Source: an uncultured Bacillota bacterium | GTDB taxonomy: Bacteria; Bacillota_I; Bacilli_A; RF39; UBA660 | Direction of reading: 5' to 3' | DNA length: 64,000 bases | Assembly: GCA_946622285.1 (NCBI GenBank) | Contig: CAMOPK010000001.1 | Location: 41,343 to 105,342, forward strand | Shown here: positions 1,237-40,581 of the stretch, one piece after another | Layout: each line of letters opens with the position of its first letter | Position numbering within the stretch: position 1 is the first letter of the stretch | Notes under the pieces: model-generated | The model's input: only the letters and a program-made list of their open reading frames with translations | Told to the model about the DNA's origin: nothing | The model's database searches: none | Program-made: the position numbers and the translations under genes

Positions 1237-1362
1237 TTATTTTTTCGATGTCAACTGTTCGCCAGCACCCAATAATGTAGCATATTTTGACATCTCATCA
1301 ATTGTTAAAGGAAGTCCTAGACGCGTTCTATCATATGCCGAATATTTTTTTAAAGGAGACAT
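1237..1362 (-). CDS. Possible small ORF (41 aa, MSPLKKYSAYDRTRLGLPLTIDEMSKYATLLGAGEQLTSKK), locally GC-richer, weak RBS
   Basis: Own translation; not in ORF track (below size cut-off). LTIDEMSKY resembles the HTH_17/Xis-type motif LTIEEASKY. No good SD sequence; in-frame stop 9 codons upstream. Confidence 0.2.
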   Translation of the reverse strand: MSPLKKYSAYDRTRLGLPLTIDEMSKYATLLGAGEQLTSKK

Positions 1363-1472
1363 AAGCATTTTTTTCTACTTACATATTCATAGTTATATTC
1401 TTTTTCTAACATTGAATCGAATGGCCTAGGAAAATACCCATCCCTACTTGTACTTTCTGAAATAATTTCAAG

Positions 1473-1494
1473 AAAAAAAGATAGAAACCTATCT
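1473..1494 (-). terminator. Rho-independent terminator after the Cys-rich peptide gene (AGATAG-GTTT-CTATCT + T7)
   Basis: Hairpin at 1479-1494 on the minus strand, followed by TTTTTTTC (complement of A-run 1473-1479). Confidence 0.5.
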
Positions 1495-1634
1495 TATTTT
1501 TCACAAGTACATTCTTTTCCTTCATGACAGCCACATTCGCATGTTTCATCACAAGAGCCATCACAAGTACATTCTTTTCCTTCTTGGCAACCACATGTGC
1601 AGTCTGGAGTGCAATTACATTTCTTTTCTTCCAT
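1494..1634 (-). CDS. Metallothionein-like cysteine-rich peptide (46 aa, 13 Cys, 1 His)
   Basis: Own translation: MEEKKCNCTPDCTCGCQEGKECTCDGSCDETCECGCHEGKECTCEK. Strong RBS GGAGG 6 nt upstream (1641-1645). Contains a perfect 23-nt internal direct repeat (1501-1523 = 1561-1583), giving two ..EGKECTC.. modules. The ORF-track 62-aa ORF at 1406..1594 is the wrong frame of the same strand. Confidence 0.6.
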   Translation of the reverse strand: MEEKKCNCTPDCTCGCQEGKECTCDGSCDETCECGCHEGKECTCEK

Positions 1635-1645
1635 TTTAATCCTCC

Positions 1646-2194
1646 TTATTTTTTATAATAATTACTATTATCTATAAACAAATCCTTTTTATTATATTTT
1701 TCTAATGTGTCTATTATTTCATCTTTATATTTAGCATTTATAGAAATAAAACCATTGACAACAATTTTAGGTAATATGCTTATTGTATATTTATTCAAAA
1801 TAATATATTTAATATCTTCCCATTTAACACGAATGTTTTTATCGTCATCAATGTACTCAATTCCATCTTCATTAAACTCAACTATTCTAACTCCTTTAGT
1901 TTTAAGAAGCATTTTTATTCTCTTAATACAAACAAATAGATAAACAATTTGAATCAACAAAATTACAGTCAAAGCACCTGTCATAAACATAAATATTGTC
2001 TCTTTTGTATCAAGATAGAAATAAAAATTAAGCAGTAAGACAAAGAAAACAAAAATATTATAATATATTAAATACTTTGTAAATTGATATGCTTTTCTTC
2101 TTGGATTTTTTTTGAATTTTTTATATCTTGAAACGACATATAAAAATTCATCATAATATTCTTTAGATCCACGTTCTTTAACTTCAAGTCGCAT
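1646..2194 (-). CDS. YcxB-like membrane protein (two TM helices + bacterial PH-like domain)
   Basis: 182 aa; central hydrophobic hairpin (IFVFFVLLLNFYFYL ... LTVILLIQIVYLFVCI) followed by a soluble C-terminal domain. Own promoter TATAAT and RBS GAAAGGA upstream. Stop is 11 nt from the Cys-rich peptide start, so they form an operon. Confidence 0.45.
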   Translation of the reverse strand: MRLEVKERGSKEYYDEFLYVVSRYKKFKKNPRRKAYQFTKYLIYYNIFVFFVLLLNFYFYLDTKETIFMFMTGALTVILLIQIVYLFVCIKRIKMLLKTKGVRIVEFNEDGIEYIDDDKNIRVKWEDIKYIILNKYTISILPKIVVNGFISINAKYKDEIIDTLEKYNKKDLFIDNSNYYKK

Positions 2195-2235
2195 ATTATC
2201 GTCCTTTCACATATAATTATATCACAAAATGACTT

Positions 2236-5200: not shown

Positions 5201-5407
5201 AGTGCTTATTCCATTAATAATTAAGTCTCCTGAGTCATAATGATCAAGACCACCAATTATATTTAAAAATGTAGTTTTACCTGATCCAGAAGGACCTAAA
5301 ATAGAAGCAAATTCGCATTCACGAAAAGAGACACTGACGTCATCAAGTGCCTTTTGAGTAAACCCTTCTGTTTTATATATTTTTGTAATGTTTTTAATTT
5401 CTAACAT
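2261..5407 (-). CDS. ABC transporter, fused ATP-binding and FtsX-like permease (MacB-type), large extracytoplasmic domain
   Basis: Walker A GPSGSGKTT, signature LSGGQMQRVAIARAL, Walker B ILLADEPTGALD at the N-terminus. C-terminal FtsX-type TM bundle (IGILRSIGASKRNISSIF...). RBS AAGGTGA. Confidence 0.85.
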   Translation of the reverse strand: MLEIKNITKIYKTEGFTQKALDDVSVSFRECEFASILGPSGSGKTTFLNIIGGLDHYDSGDLIINGISTKKYKDADWDAYRNHRIGFVFQSYNLISHQTILSNVRLALTLSGISKKEGIEKAKQALKDVGLEDHMYKRPNQLSGGQMQRVAIARALVNNPDILLADEPTGALDSETSVQIMELLKKISKDKLVIMVTHNPELAEKYSNRIINLKDGKITSDSNPFKEKKSKGSGNKDKKTSMSFLTALSLSFNNLMTKKARTILVAFAGSIGIIGIALILAVSTGFQNYVDSIQEDTLSSYPLSIMQEATDVTGALLAMQSGNGEEVNEDVVKEQQYMTSMFSNIKVNDIKSFKHYLEDNYSKVEKDLRNVKYSYSIEPLIYTIDATNKLAKLNPSSLFSSMFNSNMMGTLSSMTSIYSQMLDSREILDEQYEVLAGRWPEKYNEMIIVLSEKGNISDLLVYSLGLRDYDELTDMFTKIMSGESSNIHNEPLTFTYEDLLNIKLKMVNPYDVYKYNTKYEVYEDMSEDDEYMKGLYDKALDLKIVGIVTTKPGVTSSALTPGVHYQNSLIDYIIDNASKNEMVKKQLDNPEVDVFSNTRFDSKKNNLDLQFADLVNIDKKKLGNAFNVKINQKDLENQTKGYMGEISNSITTDITPAKKDFNNGLNTLKTGLFNSIDGNFSKNDINNIVNDYMNSAEAKNIVNNLEKNYVIPAATFKEAYSGLLKALLQIYISTYAGVDPSLTTDPSNPTAKVDNNLLNTVYQSYVTGAAGAIEKLAQGMTETKMKATILTKVGELTGNLSKSFANAFNVDSNKIASAFTLKFTEDELMRIFGAMANRSETNQNTNLIKLGYQDKEIPTYISFYFTSFEGKEDFLKFIDSYNEKMEKEGNEDKVIHYSDTTGILMNSVKTIVNAVSYVLIAFVSISLVVSSIMIGIITYISVYERTKEIGILRSIGASKRNISSIFNAETFIIGFLSGLIGIAITYTLIPIINTILHHYTGNIPLSAALAVKSAFILVVLSIILTLIGGLIPARKASKKDPVEALRSE

Positions 5408-5469
5408 CTAATCACCTTTTCTTGCCGTTAGTATTATATTATATTTTCTTAAAATTTGATAGATTTTTT

Positions 5470-5931
5470 TTAATAATCTGATGTTCTTTTTTTGTTTAAA
5501 TTTTCATCATCATCAGTAGTTAAGAATTTCATGAAAATTCCTTGAACTAGTGAATAACCAGCATCAAAATGTAAAGGCTTATCACTTTCATTTTGAACTT
5601 TAACAAATATATGTCCCTCATTGTCTTCATTGTTATAATAATCAGCATCAATAACACCTACTTGATTAACTAAACGAATATTATATTTAAAACCAGTAGA
5701 TCCTCTTACTATTAAAAATAAAACTTCATCAGAATTAAAGCATGATTTAACTCCTGTTGGAATTTTAGCAATCTCGCCTGGTTTAATATCTAAATCTTCA
5801 AGTAAGTATATATCATATCCTGCAGCATCTGTTGTTTTTCTTGCAGGCAATTTATAACTATCATAAAACTTCTTATCATCTTTTACTGATTTTGAGAATT
5901 CTTCATAACTAATTTTTTCAAACTTACGCAT
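5470..5931 (-). CDS. dut: dUTP diphosphatase (dUTPase)
   Basis: 153 aa with dUTPase motifs AGYDIYL, RGSTG and GVIDADY. Confidence 0.7.
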   Translation of the reverse strand: MRKFEKISYEEFSKSVKDDKKFYDSYKLPARKTTDAAGYDIYLLEDLDIKPGEIAKIPTGVKSCFNSDEVLFLIVRGSTGFKYNIRLVNQVGVIDADYYNNEDNEGHIFVKVQNESDKPLHFDAGYSLVQGIFMKFLTTDDDENLNKKRTSDY

Positions 5932-5933
5932 TT

Positions 5934-6437
5934 TTATATCTCCTTTGAATAATAATTGACTATAACTTCTGTTCCATCTGGATAAGTATCAGTTGATGTT
6001 TTTAGATATGTTGTAAAGCCATATTTAAAATAAATCATCATATTCTTTACTTCACATGGTTCAACCCCTAAAGTTACTTTTTTATAACCTCTTTTTTTAA
6101 GATCTTCAATCATGAACTTAAATAACTTACTGAAGTATCCTTGGCCTTGATATTCTTCAATTACACGAAACGCTTCTAAATAAGCTGTATCTTTATCGGC
6201 TAAACCATTTCCATTTTGAACATCACTTGTATCAAATATTGCAGTTGTTTCAGCAATTATTTTACCATCTAAGACTCCATGATAAACAACACTTATACCT
6301 TTTTCTACTCTATCAAAAGCATTCTTTTTCCAGGTGATCCAATTATCTTTATCACTAGCTTTATTTATTTCATAATCCCACTTTATTTCCATTTCAGGAA
6401 TAGTCGCGATTTTGCAAATATATTCCATAGGTCTCAC
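5934..6437 (-). CDS. GNAT family N-acetyltransferase
   Basis: 167 aa; acetyl-CoA-binding motif RVIEEYQGQGYFSKLFKFMIEDLKKRGY. Confidence 0.65.
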   Translation of the reverse strand: MRPMEYICKIATIPEMEIKWDYEINKASDKDNWITWKKNAFDRVEKGISVVYHGVLDGKIIAETTAIFDTSDVQNGNGLADKDTAYLEAFRVIEEYQGQGYFSKLFKFMIEDLKKRGYKKVTLGVEPCEVKNMMIYFKYGFTTYLKTSTDTYPDGTEVIVNYYSKEI

Positions 6438-10977: not shown

Positions 10978-11790
10978 TCAACTTTTCAAAAATGAAATTA
11001 TTTTAAAGATTATAAAAATTATTAAATTAACAATTACAATTGTTGCTCCAGTTGGAGTTGCAACTAAATATGAAATAATTAATCCAATTATAAATGCTAT
11101 TGTTGAAACAATTACACTAGAAATTACTACGCTTTTGAATGTCTTAAATATTTGCATCGATGATAAGGTTGGAAAAATAATCAAACTTGAAATTAGAAGT
11201 GCTCCCATTAAACGCATTCCAAGTACTACTACAACTGAGCATAAACTTGCAAAAATAATATTATAAAGATTTGTTTTAATGCCAATTGATTTTGCAAATT
11301 TTTCATCGAATGTTAGTGCAAATATTTTATTGTATGAAAATATGTATAATGCTATTACAATTATTGAAAGTATTACACTTATAATTACATCTGATTTACT
11401 AATTGCTAAAATACTACCAAATAAATAATTATTAATATCTGTATTTACTCCAAATAAGGAAACTACAAATGTTCCAATTGCAAGTGAACTTGATGATATT
11501 AAGGCAATTGCCGCATCTCCGTTTATTTTACTATTTTCATTTAATTTAAGAATAAAGAATGAAACAATTATAACAATTGGCAAAGCAAACTCAAGTGGTG
11601 CAAAATGTAAAACCGAGGCAATGGCAAAAGCTCCAAAACCAACGTGAGAAAGTCCATCCCCAATCATTGAGTTTTTCCTTAATACTAGTGAAACCCCTAC
11701 TAAAGATGCACATAAACTTATTAAAAATCCTGCTATAAGAGCTCTTATCATAAATGATAATGAAAACATTTCAATTAAACTATTTATCAT
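10978..11790 (-). CDS. znuB: ABC-3 family metal (Zn/Mn) importer permease
   Basis: 270 aa, 8-9 TM, ABC-3 permease family; overlaps the ATPase gene by 11 nt. Confidence 0.75.
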   Translation of the reverse strand: MINSLIEMFSLSFMIRALIAGFLISLCASLVGVSLVLRKNSMIGDGLSHVGFGAFAIASVLHFAPLEFALPIVIIVSFFILKLNENSKINGDAAIALISSSSLAIGTFVVSLFGVNTDINNYLFGSILAISKSDVIISVILSIIVIALYIFSYNKIFALTFDEKFAKSIGIKTNLYNIIFASLCSVVVVLGMRLMGALLISSLIIFPTLSSMQIFKTFKSVVISSVIVSTIAFIIGLIISYLVATPTGATIVIVNLIIFIIFKIISFLKS

Positions 11791-12460
11791 GATGAATCCT
11801 CCTTACAAAATCAGTTGTTGATCCATAGAAAATTTCATCTTCACGAAGTGATAATATTTTATTACCTATTAGGTTCCCATGATCTAAGTCATGAGTAATC
11901 ATGATAATTGTAATTCCTTCTTTATTTAAATTTGAAATCATTTCATAAAGATTTTCTTTTGATTTAGTGTCTAAATTATTTGATGGTTCATCTAAAATAA
12001 GTAATTTTGATGTTGCACACAAACTTCTTGCAAGTAATACTTTTTGTCTTTGGCCTCCAGATAAATCAGCAAAACTTTTATTTTTTAAATTTTCAATATG
12101 CAATAATTTTAAATTATTTAAAGCTTTTTCTTTGGCTTCTTTTGAATAGAATGGTTTAAATCCAGAATTATTTAAAGTTCCTGATAAAACTATTTCCAAA
12201 ACTGAAGCTGGAAAGTTTGCATCGACTTTTGTTTCTTGAGGCATATAACCAATGAAGTTTTGTTTTAAATTGTTATACTTGATTTTACCTTTTAATGGCT
12301 TTATAAGGCCTAAAATACCTTTTATTAAGGTTGATTTCCCAGAGCCATTTGGTCCAACCACACAGACAAAATCTCCCTCTTCAATTTTAATATCAATGTT
12401 TCTTAAAACAATGTGTTTTTCATATCCTAATGTCACATTATTTAATTCAATAAGACTCAT
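11780..12460 (-). CDS. znuC: ABC-3 family metal importer ATP-binding protein
   Basis: Walker A GPNGSGKSTL, signature LSGGQRQKVLLARSL, Walker B LILDEPSNNLD. Confidence 0.85.
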   Translation of the reverse strand: MSLIELNNVTLGYEKHIVLRNIDIKIEEGDFVCVVGPNGSGKSTLIKGILGLIKPLKGKIKYNNLKQNFIGYMPQETKVDANFPASVLEIVLSGTLNNSGFKPFYSKEAKEKALNNLKLLHIENLKNKSFADLSGGQRQKVLLARSLCATSKLLILDEPSNNLDTKSKENLYEMISNLNKEGITIIMITHDLDHGNLIGNKILSLREDEIFYGSTTDFVRRIHHDK

Positions 12461-13377
12461 TAATTTAAAGCCTCCTTTAAAGCAACAATATTATTTTTCA
12501 TAATATCAATATAACCAATATTTTTATCAAAATCAGTTTTAGAAATATTATGTGCACTATTAAATTCTAATACTTTTGCTCCTGTTTCTTTTGCTATTGC
12601 TTCTGCTATTTTTTTATTTGAAAGTTCTATATGAAAAATAACTGGTATTTTATCTTCTTTAACTTTATTAATTAAAAACGATATTGTCTTAGCACTTGCT
12701 TCACTCGCTTCAGAGCATCCAGGAAAAGCTGCATAGTAAGTTAAACCATATTCTTCTACAAAATATCTAAATGGGAAACGATCTCCAAATATGATTTCTT
12801 TTCTTTTAGCATTTTTCACTACTTTTTTTATTTCATTATCAATGCTTTCAAGTTCTTTAATATATGAATCTCTATTTGATTCATATAGTTCTTTATTTGG
12901 TTCATCAATAGATATAACTTCATCTGTTAATTTTTCAGTTATTTTAATTGCATTAACTGGACTAGTCCATACATGTTCATCAAGTTCAGTTTCAGCACTT
13001 TCTTCAGCTTCTTCTTCCATTCCTTCAGTTATTTCTTCTTCATATGTATCAACTAAATCCATAAGTTTTACTATTTTAGTTTTAGTTGGATCAATATCAA
13101 TTAAAATATCATCAATCCAAGCGTCTGATTCGCCACCAACATAAATAAAAATCTTACTATTTTTTATTTTTAAAATATCTTGAGGAGTTGGTTCAAAGTC
13201 ATGAATCTCACTACCTGGCTTTAATAACATTTCAACTTCAATATTAGAATCTTTTGTAATTGCTCTTGCAAAATCATAACTTGGAAAATTAGTCGCAACA
13301 ATAGTATATTCTTGACTATTTTTATTACATCCAGTTATTAAAAATAACATAATTATAACTACTAATATTTTTTTCAT
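12460..13377 (-). CDS. znuA: Metal-binding lipoprotein of ABC-3 system (ZnuA/TroA fold) with acidic flexible loop
   Basis: Start placed at MKKILVV (RBS GGAAGAGAG); lipobox LITGC. Acidic loop EEEITEGMEEEAEESAETELDEH. Metal specificity (Zn vs Mn) is not decidable from sequence. Confidence 0.75.
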   Translation of the reverse strand: MKKILVVIIMLFLITGCNKNSQEYTIVATNFPSYDFARAITKDSNIEVEMLLKPGSEIHDFEPTPQDILKIKNSKIFIYVGGESDAWIDDILIDIDPTKTKIVKLMDLVDTYEEEITEGMEEEAEESAETELDEHVWTSPVNAIKITEKLTDEVISIDEPNKELYESNRDSYIKELESIDNEIKKVVKNAKRKEIIFGDRFPFRYFVEEYGLTYYAAFPGCSEASEASAKTISFLINKVKEDKIPVIFHIELSNKKIAEAIAKETGAKVLEFNSAHNISKTDFDKNIGYIDIMKNNIVALKEALN

Positions 13378-13381
13378 AGAT

Positions 13382-13771
13382 TCACTCTCTTCCACACTTT
13401 TCACAAATTCCATTTATAATAATGTGTTCACTATTTATTTTAAATTTATGTTCTCTAGCAATATGACTCATAAGTTCTGTAATACAGTCACAATCAACAT
13501 GAATGATGTTTCCACATTTTTCACATTTCAAATAAAAGTGATTTTCATGTTCACATTTTTCTAGATATTGATAATAAGCTATATTATCATCACCTATTGT
13601 TTTATTTAATAAGCCTTCTTTAACTAGCTTATCTATCAGACGATATATAGTTGTTAATCCAACTTCTTTATTTAAATATTTATAGATATCTTGTGCTTTA
13701 AATTCACTTTTTTGATTCTTAATTTCGTTTAAAATTAAATCTTTTTGTTTTGTTTTATAAGAATAATTCAT
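13382..13771 (-). CDS. Fur-family metalloregulator (probable Zur, by operon context)
   Basis: 129 aa, N-terminal winged helix, two C-terminal CxxC pairs (CEKCGN..., CEKCG). First gene of the regulator-znuACB operon. Confidence 0.8.
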   Translation of the reverse strand: MNYSYKTKQKDLILNEIKNQKSEFKAQDIYKYLNKEVGLTTIYRLIDKLVKEGLLNKTIGDDNIAYYQYLEKCEHENHFYLKCEKCGNIIHVDCDCITELMSHIAREHKFKINSEHIIINGICEKCGRE

Positions 13772-13782
13772 TATATCAGCTC

Positions 13783-13807
13783 CAATTTGAAAATGATTTT
13801 CAAATTG
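13783..13807. promoter_or_regulatory. Perfect 12-1-12 palindrome CAATTTGAAAAT-G-ATTTTCAAATTG (Fur-box-like, core TGAAAATnATTTTCA) overlapping the promoter of the regulator gene
   Basis: Seen directly in sequence: sits between the -10 TATAAT (minus strand) and the RBS of the Fur-family gene, and matches the 7-1-7 Fur/PerR/Zur box architecture. Confidence 0.55.
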
Positions 13808-40216: not shown

Positions 40217-40465
40217 AATATCAACCCTTTCTAAACAAAAAAACATTTCATCCAAAGGACGAAATGTTCGTGGTACCACCTTAATTTATAGTATTGCTAC
40301 TATCTCAAAGTCTTAATGCGACTAACAATATATCTTACTCTTAGTTCTGACATATAACTCCCAAGCTACCTTCAAATAGGTTTCACTAATGAATGCTTTC
40401 AGTCGGTGACATTCAATTCCTAATAGTTACTAACTACTTTACTCCTCTTGTTCTTCGTTTTTTTA
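40217..40465 (-). promoter_or_regulatory. T-box riboswitch leader of valS (specifier GUC, T-box AAGGUGGUACCACG, terminator AACAUUUC...GAAAUGUU + U7), with consensus promoter TTGACA-N16-TATAAT upstream
   Basis: Own reverse complement: ...AATGTCACC (Val GUC specifier) ... AATTAAGGTGGTACCACGAACATTTCGTCCTTTGGATGAAATGTTTTTTTG. Confidence 0.8.
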
Positions 40466-40504
40466 TAATTATAATCATTTAAATAATTTTGTCAATACAT
40501 AAAA

Positions 40505-40581
40505 TGGCGCCTCAAGTAGGACTCGAACCTACGACCCCTTGATTAACAGTCAAGTGCTCTAACCGACTGAGCTATTGAGGC
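40505..40581 (-). tRNA. tRNA-Asn (anticodon GTT)
   Basis: Folded by hand: acceptor GCCTCAA/TTGAGGC, D arm GCTC..GAGC, anticodon loop CTGTTAA, T arm GTAGG-TTCGAGT-CCTAC, encoded CCA; 77 nt. Confidence 0.9.

Follow-up and report, generated by a model that had tools for sequence, protein, structure and literature searches.

A 64 kb stretch of DNA from an uncultured Bacillota bacterium (assembly GCA_946622285.1, contig CAMOPK010000001.1, positions 41,343 to 105,342; hereafter the window, GC content 27.9%) contains a genuine, previously unannotated small gene, which encodes a 46-amino-acid (aa) peptide with 13 cysteines arranged in two repeated modules. The peptide is probably a cytosolic, metallothionein-like protein, with Cu(I) as the most likely metal and Zn(II) or Cd(II) as possible ones, because relatives of the module are linked to CsoR, CopZ and CopA genes, to CDF exporter genes and to SlyD, because there are precedents for copper-binding peptides of this type, and because AlphaFold 2 (AF2) modelling predicts no structure for the metal-free (apo) peptide. 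We infer metal binding, metal identity, stoichiometry and regulation in this genome from sequence comparisons and genomic context. A metallothionein-like character had been proposed earlier from the letters of this DNA (the original prediction), and it is still the best functional reading, given the links of relatives to CsoR, CopA, CDF, HMA/CopZ, ArsR and SlyD. That prediction had missed copper, rather than zinc, as the metal suggested by the context, and it had also missed the spread of the module, which reaches well beyond Firmicutes.

The Peptide Gene and Its Product

The features of the peptide gene are listed below; (-) denotes the reverse strand, and L083 and L084 are related metagenome contigs carrying orthologues.

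1494..1634 (-): coding sequence (CDS) of the 46-aa, 13-Cys peptide, identified from the listing of open reading frames (ORFs), homologues and selection relative to L083 and L084
C6-C24 of the peptide: module 1, 7 Cys, CxCx3CxCxCx5CxC
C28-C44 of the peptide: module 2, 6 Cys
1641-1645 (-): ribosome-binding site (RBS) GGAGG, 6 nt ahead of the ATG, conserved as AAGGAGGA in L083 and GAGGAGGA in L084
1406..1594 (-): shadow ORF of 62 aa in another frame, overlapping the peptide gene
1466..1502 (-): weak terminator-like hairpin AAGAUAG-GUUU-CUAUCUU with a U-tract; 7-bp AT-rich stem, overlapping the peptide stop codon

The translated sequence of ORF 1494..1634 is MEEKKCNCTPDCTCGCQEGKECTCDGSCDETCECGCHEGKECTCEK (46 aa). 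Cysteine accounts for 13 of the 46 residues (28%), and phenylalanine, tryptophan and tyrosine are absent. The cysteines are spaced as CxC (seven times), Cx3C (three times) and Cx5C (twice); thus, of the CxC/CxxC spacing described originally, the CxC part holds, and CxxC does not occur at all. Module 2 has one histidine where module 1 has glutamine, which gives a potential ligand set of 13 Cys and one His over the two modules. The size and composition typical of metallothioneins, namely low mass, 15–30% Cys, no aromatic residues and motifs of the CxC/CxxC type, are found in the peptide, and no other ORF of the window pairs more than 10% Cys with a CxC..CxC pattern. The AF2 model (pLDDT 54.5) contains no secondary structure and thus indicates no stable apo fold, as is seen for metallothioneins.

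The ORF and its cysteine content, the GGAGG RBS and the 11-nt gap that separates the ATG from the stop codon (1646-1648) of an upstream 182-aa ORF all agree with the original prediction, as does the view that the 62-aa ORF is a wrong frame. In relatives, this frame is stop-free within the peptide gene, yet its sequence is unconserved, and it is therefore regarded as a shadow frame, which stays open because Cys, Glu and Lys codons yield no stops there. The predicted hairpin terminator was borne out only partly: the 7-bp stem and the U-tract are present, but the hairpin is weak (-11.6 kcal/mol, z = -1.0 on folding) and was not among the calls of the terminator scan. The hairpin is identical in L083 and missing in L084.

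Coding Status and Conservation

The search over 5.8 billion proteins revealed 31 homologues of the peptide, which share an almost invariant N-terminal segment, MEEKKCNCxPDCTCGCQEGKECTC, and vary in their modular C-terminal part. Between the window gene and its L083 orthologue, 10 of the 13 differences lie at third codon positions, with nine synonymous and two non-synonymous codon changes; the corresponding figures for L084 are 17 of 25, with 14 synonymous and seven non-synonymous changes, and all 13 cysteines are retained in both orthologues. More distant carriers of the module, including metagenome-assembled genomes (MAGs) of other phyla, compare with the window module as follows.

Akkermansia MAGs: locus GC 59%; 17-18/19 aa identical; 5-6/19 third positions identical
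Planctomycetaceae MAG: locus GC 57%; 16-17/19 aa identical; 10-12/19 third positions identical
Propioniciclava: locus GC 68-70%; 13-16/19 aa identical; 4-5/19 third positions identical

The best Akkermansia module is identical at 18 of 19 residues with just six of 19 third positions identical. These substitution patterns demonstrate a real, protein-coding gene under purifying selection and a 19-aa module whose protein sequence is conserved across phyla. A structured RNA or a DNA repeat, for which the original prediction had expected conservation independent of frame, is excluded, since amino acids are conserved while third positions are scrambled over GC contents of 57–70%. In the same cross-phylum comparison, the non-Cys residues within the module are also under strong constraint, which may reflect a particular fold or partner.

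The two modules of the window peptide share a repeat at the DNA level.

1501..1601 (-): internal direct repeat; 23 nt perfect (1501-1523 and 1561-1583), 41 nt at 88%

The perfect 23-nt repeat had been noticed originally and extends to the 41 nt given above; it encodes the C-x-C-G-C-(Q/H)-E-G-K-E-C-T-C cores of both modules. Given the same amino acids and the codon usage of the genome, identical EGKECTC codons have an expected probability of 0.03 (analytic estimate). Beside the identical stretch, two of 11 synonymous codons differ between modules 1 and 2, compared with two to six such differences for module 1 between species and one to six for module pairs within other genes. The recent in-frame duplication proposed originally was therefore rejected, since the window pair diverges within the between-species range. 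Two-module and multi-module architectures are found throughout the family, and the duplication appears to be old or recurrent, not demonstrably recent.

Metal-Related Genes Linked to the Module in Relatives

The family scan, which used one genome per species, found 112 relatives, and 80 loci were kept. In 15 of these 80 loci, a CsoR-family gene (PF02583) directly adjoins the module gene, in at least four lineages and in three gene orders.

csoR, then peptide: Bacilli-type loci L004, L007, L011, L023, L030 and L034
peptide, then csoR: L003, L006, L037, L055 and L082
csoR, then a gene for modules plus HMA, then a P1B-ATPase gene: Propioniciclava/Actinomycetes loci L047, L048, L075 and L080

In the flanks of these 15 loci, no CsoR gene occurs elsewhere than beside the module gene. 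The window peptide shares 78% identity with its closest CsoR-linked orthologue, that of L007, and in Propioniciclava, including strain DSM 22130, csoR, a module-HMA/CopZ fusion gene and a copA-type P1B-ATPase gene follow each other in that order. All nine adjacent CsoR proteins that were aligned carry the C...H-x3-C pattern, the fingerprint of Cu(I)-sensing CsoR. Inspection of 15 upstream regions revealed boxes of the TACCC...GGGGTA type or, in the Bacilli loci, a ATATACCCCC box, in 13 of them; classical operator-like boxes include ATACCCCCAAGGGGTAT (L047) and TATACTCTAAGGGGGTATA (L037), the ATATACCCCC box is conserved beside the -35 element in all six Bacilli loci, and the upstream regions of L048 and L080 contain no clear box.

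Links to other metal-related genes are fewer and of several kinds. In L032, the peptide gene begins 31 nt after a gene for a CDF exporter (PF01545), and a second CDF gene is the downstream neighbour in another locus, making two CDF-linked loci in all. The L057 protein (5314-6075) is an FKBP of the SlyD type with a repeated CGCGEHHHHHDEG His/Cys-rich tail that ends in the Cys module, so that the module occupies the usual position of the metal-binding tail of SlyD, and in P0072 the module is fused to an ArsR-type helix-turn-helix (HTH) domain. The only recurrent functional neighbours of the family are metal-homeostasis genes. Comparisons of the loci thus demonstrate, at the level of gene order and fusion, that relatives are physically linked to genes of a Cu(I) sensor, a Cu chaperone, a Cu-ATPase, CDF, ArsR and SlyD proteins, and the metal suggested by this context is copper rather than zinc.

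A less likely possibility, which should be given a modest weight, is a Zn(II)/Cd(II)-buffering metallothionein similar to SmtA, in which each module would be a part of an M(II)3-4 thiolate cluster. This explanation draws on the CDF Zn/Cd/Co exporter gene directly upstream in L032 and the second CDF gene downstream in the other locus, on the ArsR/SmtB-type HTH fused in P0072, on the single replacement of Gln by His in module 2 and on a Fur-family/znuABC operon in the window, located 9–12 kb from the peptide gene, the presence of which had been predicted correctly.

10978-13771 (-): Fur-family gene and znuABC-type operon

A perfect palindrome, TTTGAAAATGATTTTCAAA (13786-13804), lies right after a TATAAT ahead of the Fur-family gene and is probably the operator of the znuABC-type operon itself. 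It is the sole exact copy in the window; one other match has three mismatches, and none is near the peptide gene, which counts against the Zn/Cd explanation and agrees with the original statement that there is no matching Zur/Fur operator near the gene. The Zur-like half-match GTAATTATTAT falls inside the CDS of the neighbouring 182-aa protein, and its conservation follows that of the protein. The balance of links, 15 loci with CsoR/CopZ/CopA against two with CDF, and the all-Cys, CxC-dominated ligands also favour Cu(I).

Distribution and Architectures of the Module Family

An exhaustive search of 1.84 billion cluster representatives with a hidden Markov model (HMM) gave just 57 matches at E <= 1e-3; the family is small and its members are short. 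Most family loci belong to gut or rumen MAGs labelled Bacilli, Erysipelotrichaceae or 'Tenericutes'; other labels are Akkermansia, Gastranaerophilales, AT-rich 'Rickettsiales/Alphaproteobacteria', Planctomycetes and Clostridia, and Propioniciclava tarda DSM 22130 is an isolate among the carriers. Some of the labels look unreliable, namely those of L003 and L006 ('Rickettsiales') and of L004, L052, L060 and L073 ('Muribaculaceae'): the GC content of L003, L004 and L006 is 25–26% where measured, CsoR and the peptide of L004 are closely similar to the versions of Bacilli MAGs, and the peptides of L052, L060 and L073 are Bacilli-like. The 80 loci fall into the following classes.

37/80: free-standing gene of up to 110 aa
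12/80: N-terminal extension of GrpE inside hrcA-grpE-dnaK
10/80: fusion with YlbF/YmcA (Akkermansia)
4/80: fusion with HMA (CopZ-like)
2/80: fusion with SIMPL
15/80: other longer proteins

The last class includes the SlyD-type FKBP, a MinD-type ATPase, HisRS, a TPR protein and forms with signal peptides, and further fusions were found with the ArsR-type HTH (P0072), a DoxX protein (P0045) and HMA (P0065). The GrpE fusions (L009, L010, L016, L019, L022, L028, L043, L046, L067 and L077, with the match near 6000 in each, as well as P0035 and P0050) come from Bacilli and Clostridia MAGs and carry from one to several copies of the Cys module at the N-terminus; the module-GrpE protein may be a metal- or redox-sensing co-chaperone. 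The Akkermansia fusions with YlbF/YmcA (PF06133; L013, L017, L025, L036, L040, L041, L050, L056, L070 and L081) contain the Cys module and a CCGKHGEGHEC-type tail at the C-terminus, and the gene that comes next is always that of a conserved membrane protein of 592-594 aa. Signal-peptide members (L064, L068, L082, P0039, P0075, P0076 and P0088) originate mostly from MAGs of the Gastranaerophilales type; their N-terminal signal peptides imply that the module is used outside the cytoplasm too. One of them, L082, still adjoins a CsoR gene.

The module may instead have a redox or sulfur-handling role, not that of a metal store, and act as a buffer of thiols/disulfides or persulfide, a carrier of Fe-S clusters or a sensor of stress. 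Such a role would better explain the attachment to chaperones and housekeeping proteins, seen in the GrpE fusions within hrcA-grpE-dnaK (12 of the 80 loci) and in the DoxX, YlbF/YmcA, MinD-type ATPase and HisRS fusions; the strong conservation of non-Cys residues also speaks for it, as does the fact that some CsoR-family members sense persulfide and not Cu. It is nevertheless improbable, since all nine aligned adjacent CsoR proteins are of the Cu(I)-type C-H-C and not of the C-x-C persulfide-sensor type, the HMA/P1B-ATPase operons are copper-specific, and no known Fe-S motif has the CxC spacing.

Neither the Pfam nor the NCBIfam scan of the peptide gave a match above threshold, and the search of Protein Data Bank (PDB) sequences found only a chance EGF-like match (E = 1.1); no family in these three databases covers the 19-aa module. 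The original prediction had looked to profiles of known metallothioneins such as SmtA and MymT, and the comparison placed the peptide in no known metallothionein family. A tblastn search against plasmids and phages gave no match, to which the BLAST low-complexity filter may contribute. Full-text literature searches with motif strings and related descriptions found no account of the family; a paper on a 'thioredoxin-metallothionein chimera' was considered and set aside, as it concerns an SmtA-type domain unrelated to the module family. This family of Cys-rich modules is thus apparently undescribed.

The Membrane Protein Partner and the Genomic Setting

The peptide gene lies at the end of a putative two-gene unit with the following features.

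1646..2194 (-): partner gene upstream of the peptide gene; 182 aa, two transmembrane (TM) helices and a C-terminal PH/PTB-like domain
2216..2224 (-): extended -10 promoter element TGATATAAT, conserved as TGTTATAAT in L083 and TGCTATAAT in L084
2236..2260 (-): terminator hairpin AAGAGAC-UUUU-GUCUCUU with a U-tract, belonging to the upstream gene of a MacB-like ABC transporter

The partner had been called YcxB-like, and this designation finds support in structure prediction but not in profile scores: the AF2 model (pLDDT 76.5) contains two long TM helices and a beta-sandwich-and-helix domain, for which a Foldseek search revealed similarity to the PH/PTB-like domains of FERM-F3 and talin-F3 (E about 0.015, probability 1.0), but the PF14317 (YcxB-like) score of 12.6 bits is below the cutoff of 23.3. 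The NF041635 (STM3941) score is 21.2 bits with a cutoff of 40. The predicted architecture fits a YcxB-like protein.

The position of the 2236-2260 hairpin is kept in L083 and L084 and forms the 5' boundary of the unit, and the extended -10 element, which lies after this terminator, is the probable start of a bicistronic transcript. Among 17 homologues of the partner, the order of partner and 46-aa Cys peptide with a gap of 10-12 nt recurs in L083 and L084 (partner 88% and 64% identical, respectively), and co-transcription, as claimed originally, is plausible. In L085 (partner 56% identical), a Na_Ca_ex gene is inserted between the partner and peptide genes; at L085:3057-4148, this exchanger gene (PF01699) is followed 12 nt later by the gene of a 41-aa Cys peptide. 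The partner homologue of L086 (43% identical) has no accompanying peptide. The bofA gene comes next in every peptide-bearing member of the clade that was examined (L083-L085), in L084 without a terminator between. The operon partner is thus conserved within the clade of the window, and among the 80 species loci of other lineages it is beside the peptide in none. The pairing is a clade-specific synteny, plausibly an operon, and not a family-wide functional partnership.

These observations also bear on a role of the peptide as a clade-specific accessory or ligand of the 2-TM PH-like protein, or as a sporulation-related factor beside bofA, with metal binding being incidental. The preservation of the pair at 10-12 nt in L083 and L084, with partners 88% and 64% identical, and the constant presence of bofA, not separated by a terminator in L084, would suit such a role; it is very improbable given the absence of the partner from all 80 other-lineage loci, the Na_Ca_ex gene that splits the pair in L085, the partner homologue of L086 that occurs without a peptide, and a module that long predates the pairing.

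The MacB-like ABC transporter gene directly upstream in the clade of the window brings to mind a ribosomally synthesised and post-translationally modified peptide (RiPP), for example a sactipeptide or ranthipeptide, whose precursor would have a conserved N-terminal leader and a variable core, exported via the neighbouring transporter; the almost invariant 24 N-terminal residues and the variable C-terminus of the homologues would look like such a leader and core. This explanation is very unlikely. The terminator at 2236-2260 separates the transporter gene from the peptide unit, and the supposed leader is itself the repeated module, which takes N-terminal, C-terminal or internal positions in large cytosolic GrpE, SlyD, CopZ and HisRS proteins. 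No NCBIfam RiPP-precursor model matches the peptide. A precursor with a maturase elsewhere had been named originally as an outcome that would overturn the metallothionein-like reading; within ~12 kb of the gene, the window encodes neither a radical-SAM enzyme nor a peptidase or any other maturase, and no maturase recurs among the neighbours of the family.

The genes near the peptide gene in the window encode the ABC transporter, dUTPase, GNAT, AMP-binding enzyme, YibE/F, BofA and Mbeg1-like proteins. The "43-aa ORF" at 1240-1460 (-), which lies between the peptide gene and bofA, derives by frameshift from a 272-aa gene that is intact in L083 (3272-4090); in the window, the 5' part of this gene has been deleted and the remnant corresponds to its last ~80 residues. 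Farther away, a tRNA gene is directly followed by a T-box leader (106 bits) at 40252-40581 (-).

Proposed Function and Significance

Taken as a metallothionein, the peptide would be translated from its own strong RBS, on an mRNA that probably starts at the extended -10 element ahead of the partner gene. Its 13 thiolates, arranged as two copies of C-x-C-x3-C-x-C-x-C-x5-C-x-C, would fold only around metal-thiolate clusters; each module may hold a Cu(I) cluster, e.g., of the Cu4S6 type, with Zn(II) or Cd(II) as possible substitutes, and the peptide would serve as a buffer or sink for soft metal ions in an anaerobe, to which Cu(I) is particularly toxic. There are precedents for the components of this model. 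RicR, a paralogue of CsoR, controls the mycobacterial Cu(I) metallothionein MymT (PMC3944814), and a Cu4 cluster forms in a 19-aa CNCxxCxC segment (PMC2396432). Anaerobic conditions raise the toxicity of copper, which then makes proteins aggregate, an effect countered by chaperones including DnaK (PMC9040851); the GrpE fusions are consistent with this.

Several observations weigh against a metallothionein-like function. The window contains no CsoR gene, P1B-ATPase or HMA protein, and no TACCC/GGGGTA-type CsoR box above chance. Scanning of the immediate neighbours of 33–34 standalone members revealed mostly unrelated housekeeping genes. Simple sequestration provides no obvious explanation for the fusions of the module to GrpE, HisRS, MinD, SIMPL, DoxX and YlbF. 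The non-Cys residues are far more conserved than in ordinary metallothioneins, and searches of Pfam, NCBIfam and PDB, together with hhalign comparisons with SmtA and MymT, indicated no homology to any characterised metallothionein.

A broader proposal is also tenable, with somewhat less than an even chance of being correct: the 19-residue C-x-C-(G/S/T)-(P/E)-D-C-T-C-G-C-Q-E-G-K-E-C-T-C unit may be an unrecognised structured metal-cluster domain, probably a Cu(I)4-thiolate one, spread over at least five phyla of gut and rumen anaerobes and serving both as a free CsoR-controlled metallothionein and as a plug-in sensor or buffer on GrpE, SlyD, CopZ, ArsR and other proteins. If this is true, the domain would couple the protein-folding machinery of anaerobes directly to copper stress; the GrpE and SlyD fusions suggest a built-in link of soft-metal stress to chaperones.

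Functionally characterised bacterial metallothioneins are few; a paper of 2020 names SmtA and MymT only (PMC7387436), and according to a paper of 2026 the knowledge of bacterial metallothioneins is still limited (PMC13578184). The literature searches found no characterised metallothionein from Firmicutes or strict gut anaerobes. The module family would be a third, unrelated type beside SmtA and MymT, with a compact, highly conserved 7-Cys unit. Genetic handles on the family are offered by the csoR operons, the CopZ fusions and the cultured carrier Propioniciclava tarda DSM 22130, and the module, as a short, encodable metal-binding tag, might find use in bioremediation or metal sensing.

Comparison with Known Metal-Binding Systems

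MymT resembles the window peptide in being a cytosolic, Cys-rich protein of ~50 aa with CxC motifs, and its control by a CsoR-family Cu(I) repressor (PMC3944814) has a counterpart in the adjoining CsoR genes of 15 of the 80 loci of module relatives. The hhalign probability is, however, only 1.8% over six aligned columns; MymT has mixed Cys/His ligands, unlike the 13 Cys and one His in two repeated 19-aa modules, the module is hosted by anaerobes of the gut and rumen that belong to several phyla, and neither a CsoR gene nor a CsoR box is near the window copy.

The SmtA/BmtA (PF02069) proteins of cyanobacteria and pseudomonads are likewise small, Cys-rich bacterial metal buffers, a role that the window peptide would share, and the ArsR/SmtB-type fusion in P0072 echoes the pairing of SmtB and SmtA. 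On the other hand, SmtA has a zinc-finger-like fold, Cys9His2 ligands and aromatic residues, whereas the window peptide has neither predicted secondary structure nor aromatics, and it gave no Pfam match at E<=1, no NCBIfam match and an hhalign probability of 0.6% with SmtA.

In the Drosophila Mtn family (PF02067, metallothionein family 5) and in the dMTF-1 segment CNCTNCKCDQTKSCHGGDC, CxC and CxCx3CxC dominate the spacing of cysteines as well, and the dMTF-1 segment, a short all-Cys segment of similar length, forms a Cu4S6 cluster (PMC2396432). The window peptide scores 10.6 bits against PF02067, with a cutoff of 25 (E = 0.65), and only a relative with many repeats passes, at the whole-protein level and with no single matching stretch. 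Unlike in Drosophila Mtn and copper thioneins, the non-Cys residues of the module are conserved too, and the resemblance to PF02067 is compositional, not homologous.

The C-terminal tails of SlyD and HypB and the N-terminal extensions of CopZ and CopA offer a positional parallel, since the module is found in exactly these positions, after FKBP and a His-rich tail in L057 and before HMA in L047, L048, L075, L080 and P0065. The known tails are low-complexity His/Cys/Asp sequences without a conserved register, whereas the module is a discrete 19-aa unit that also occurs as a free-standing gene.

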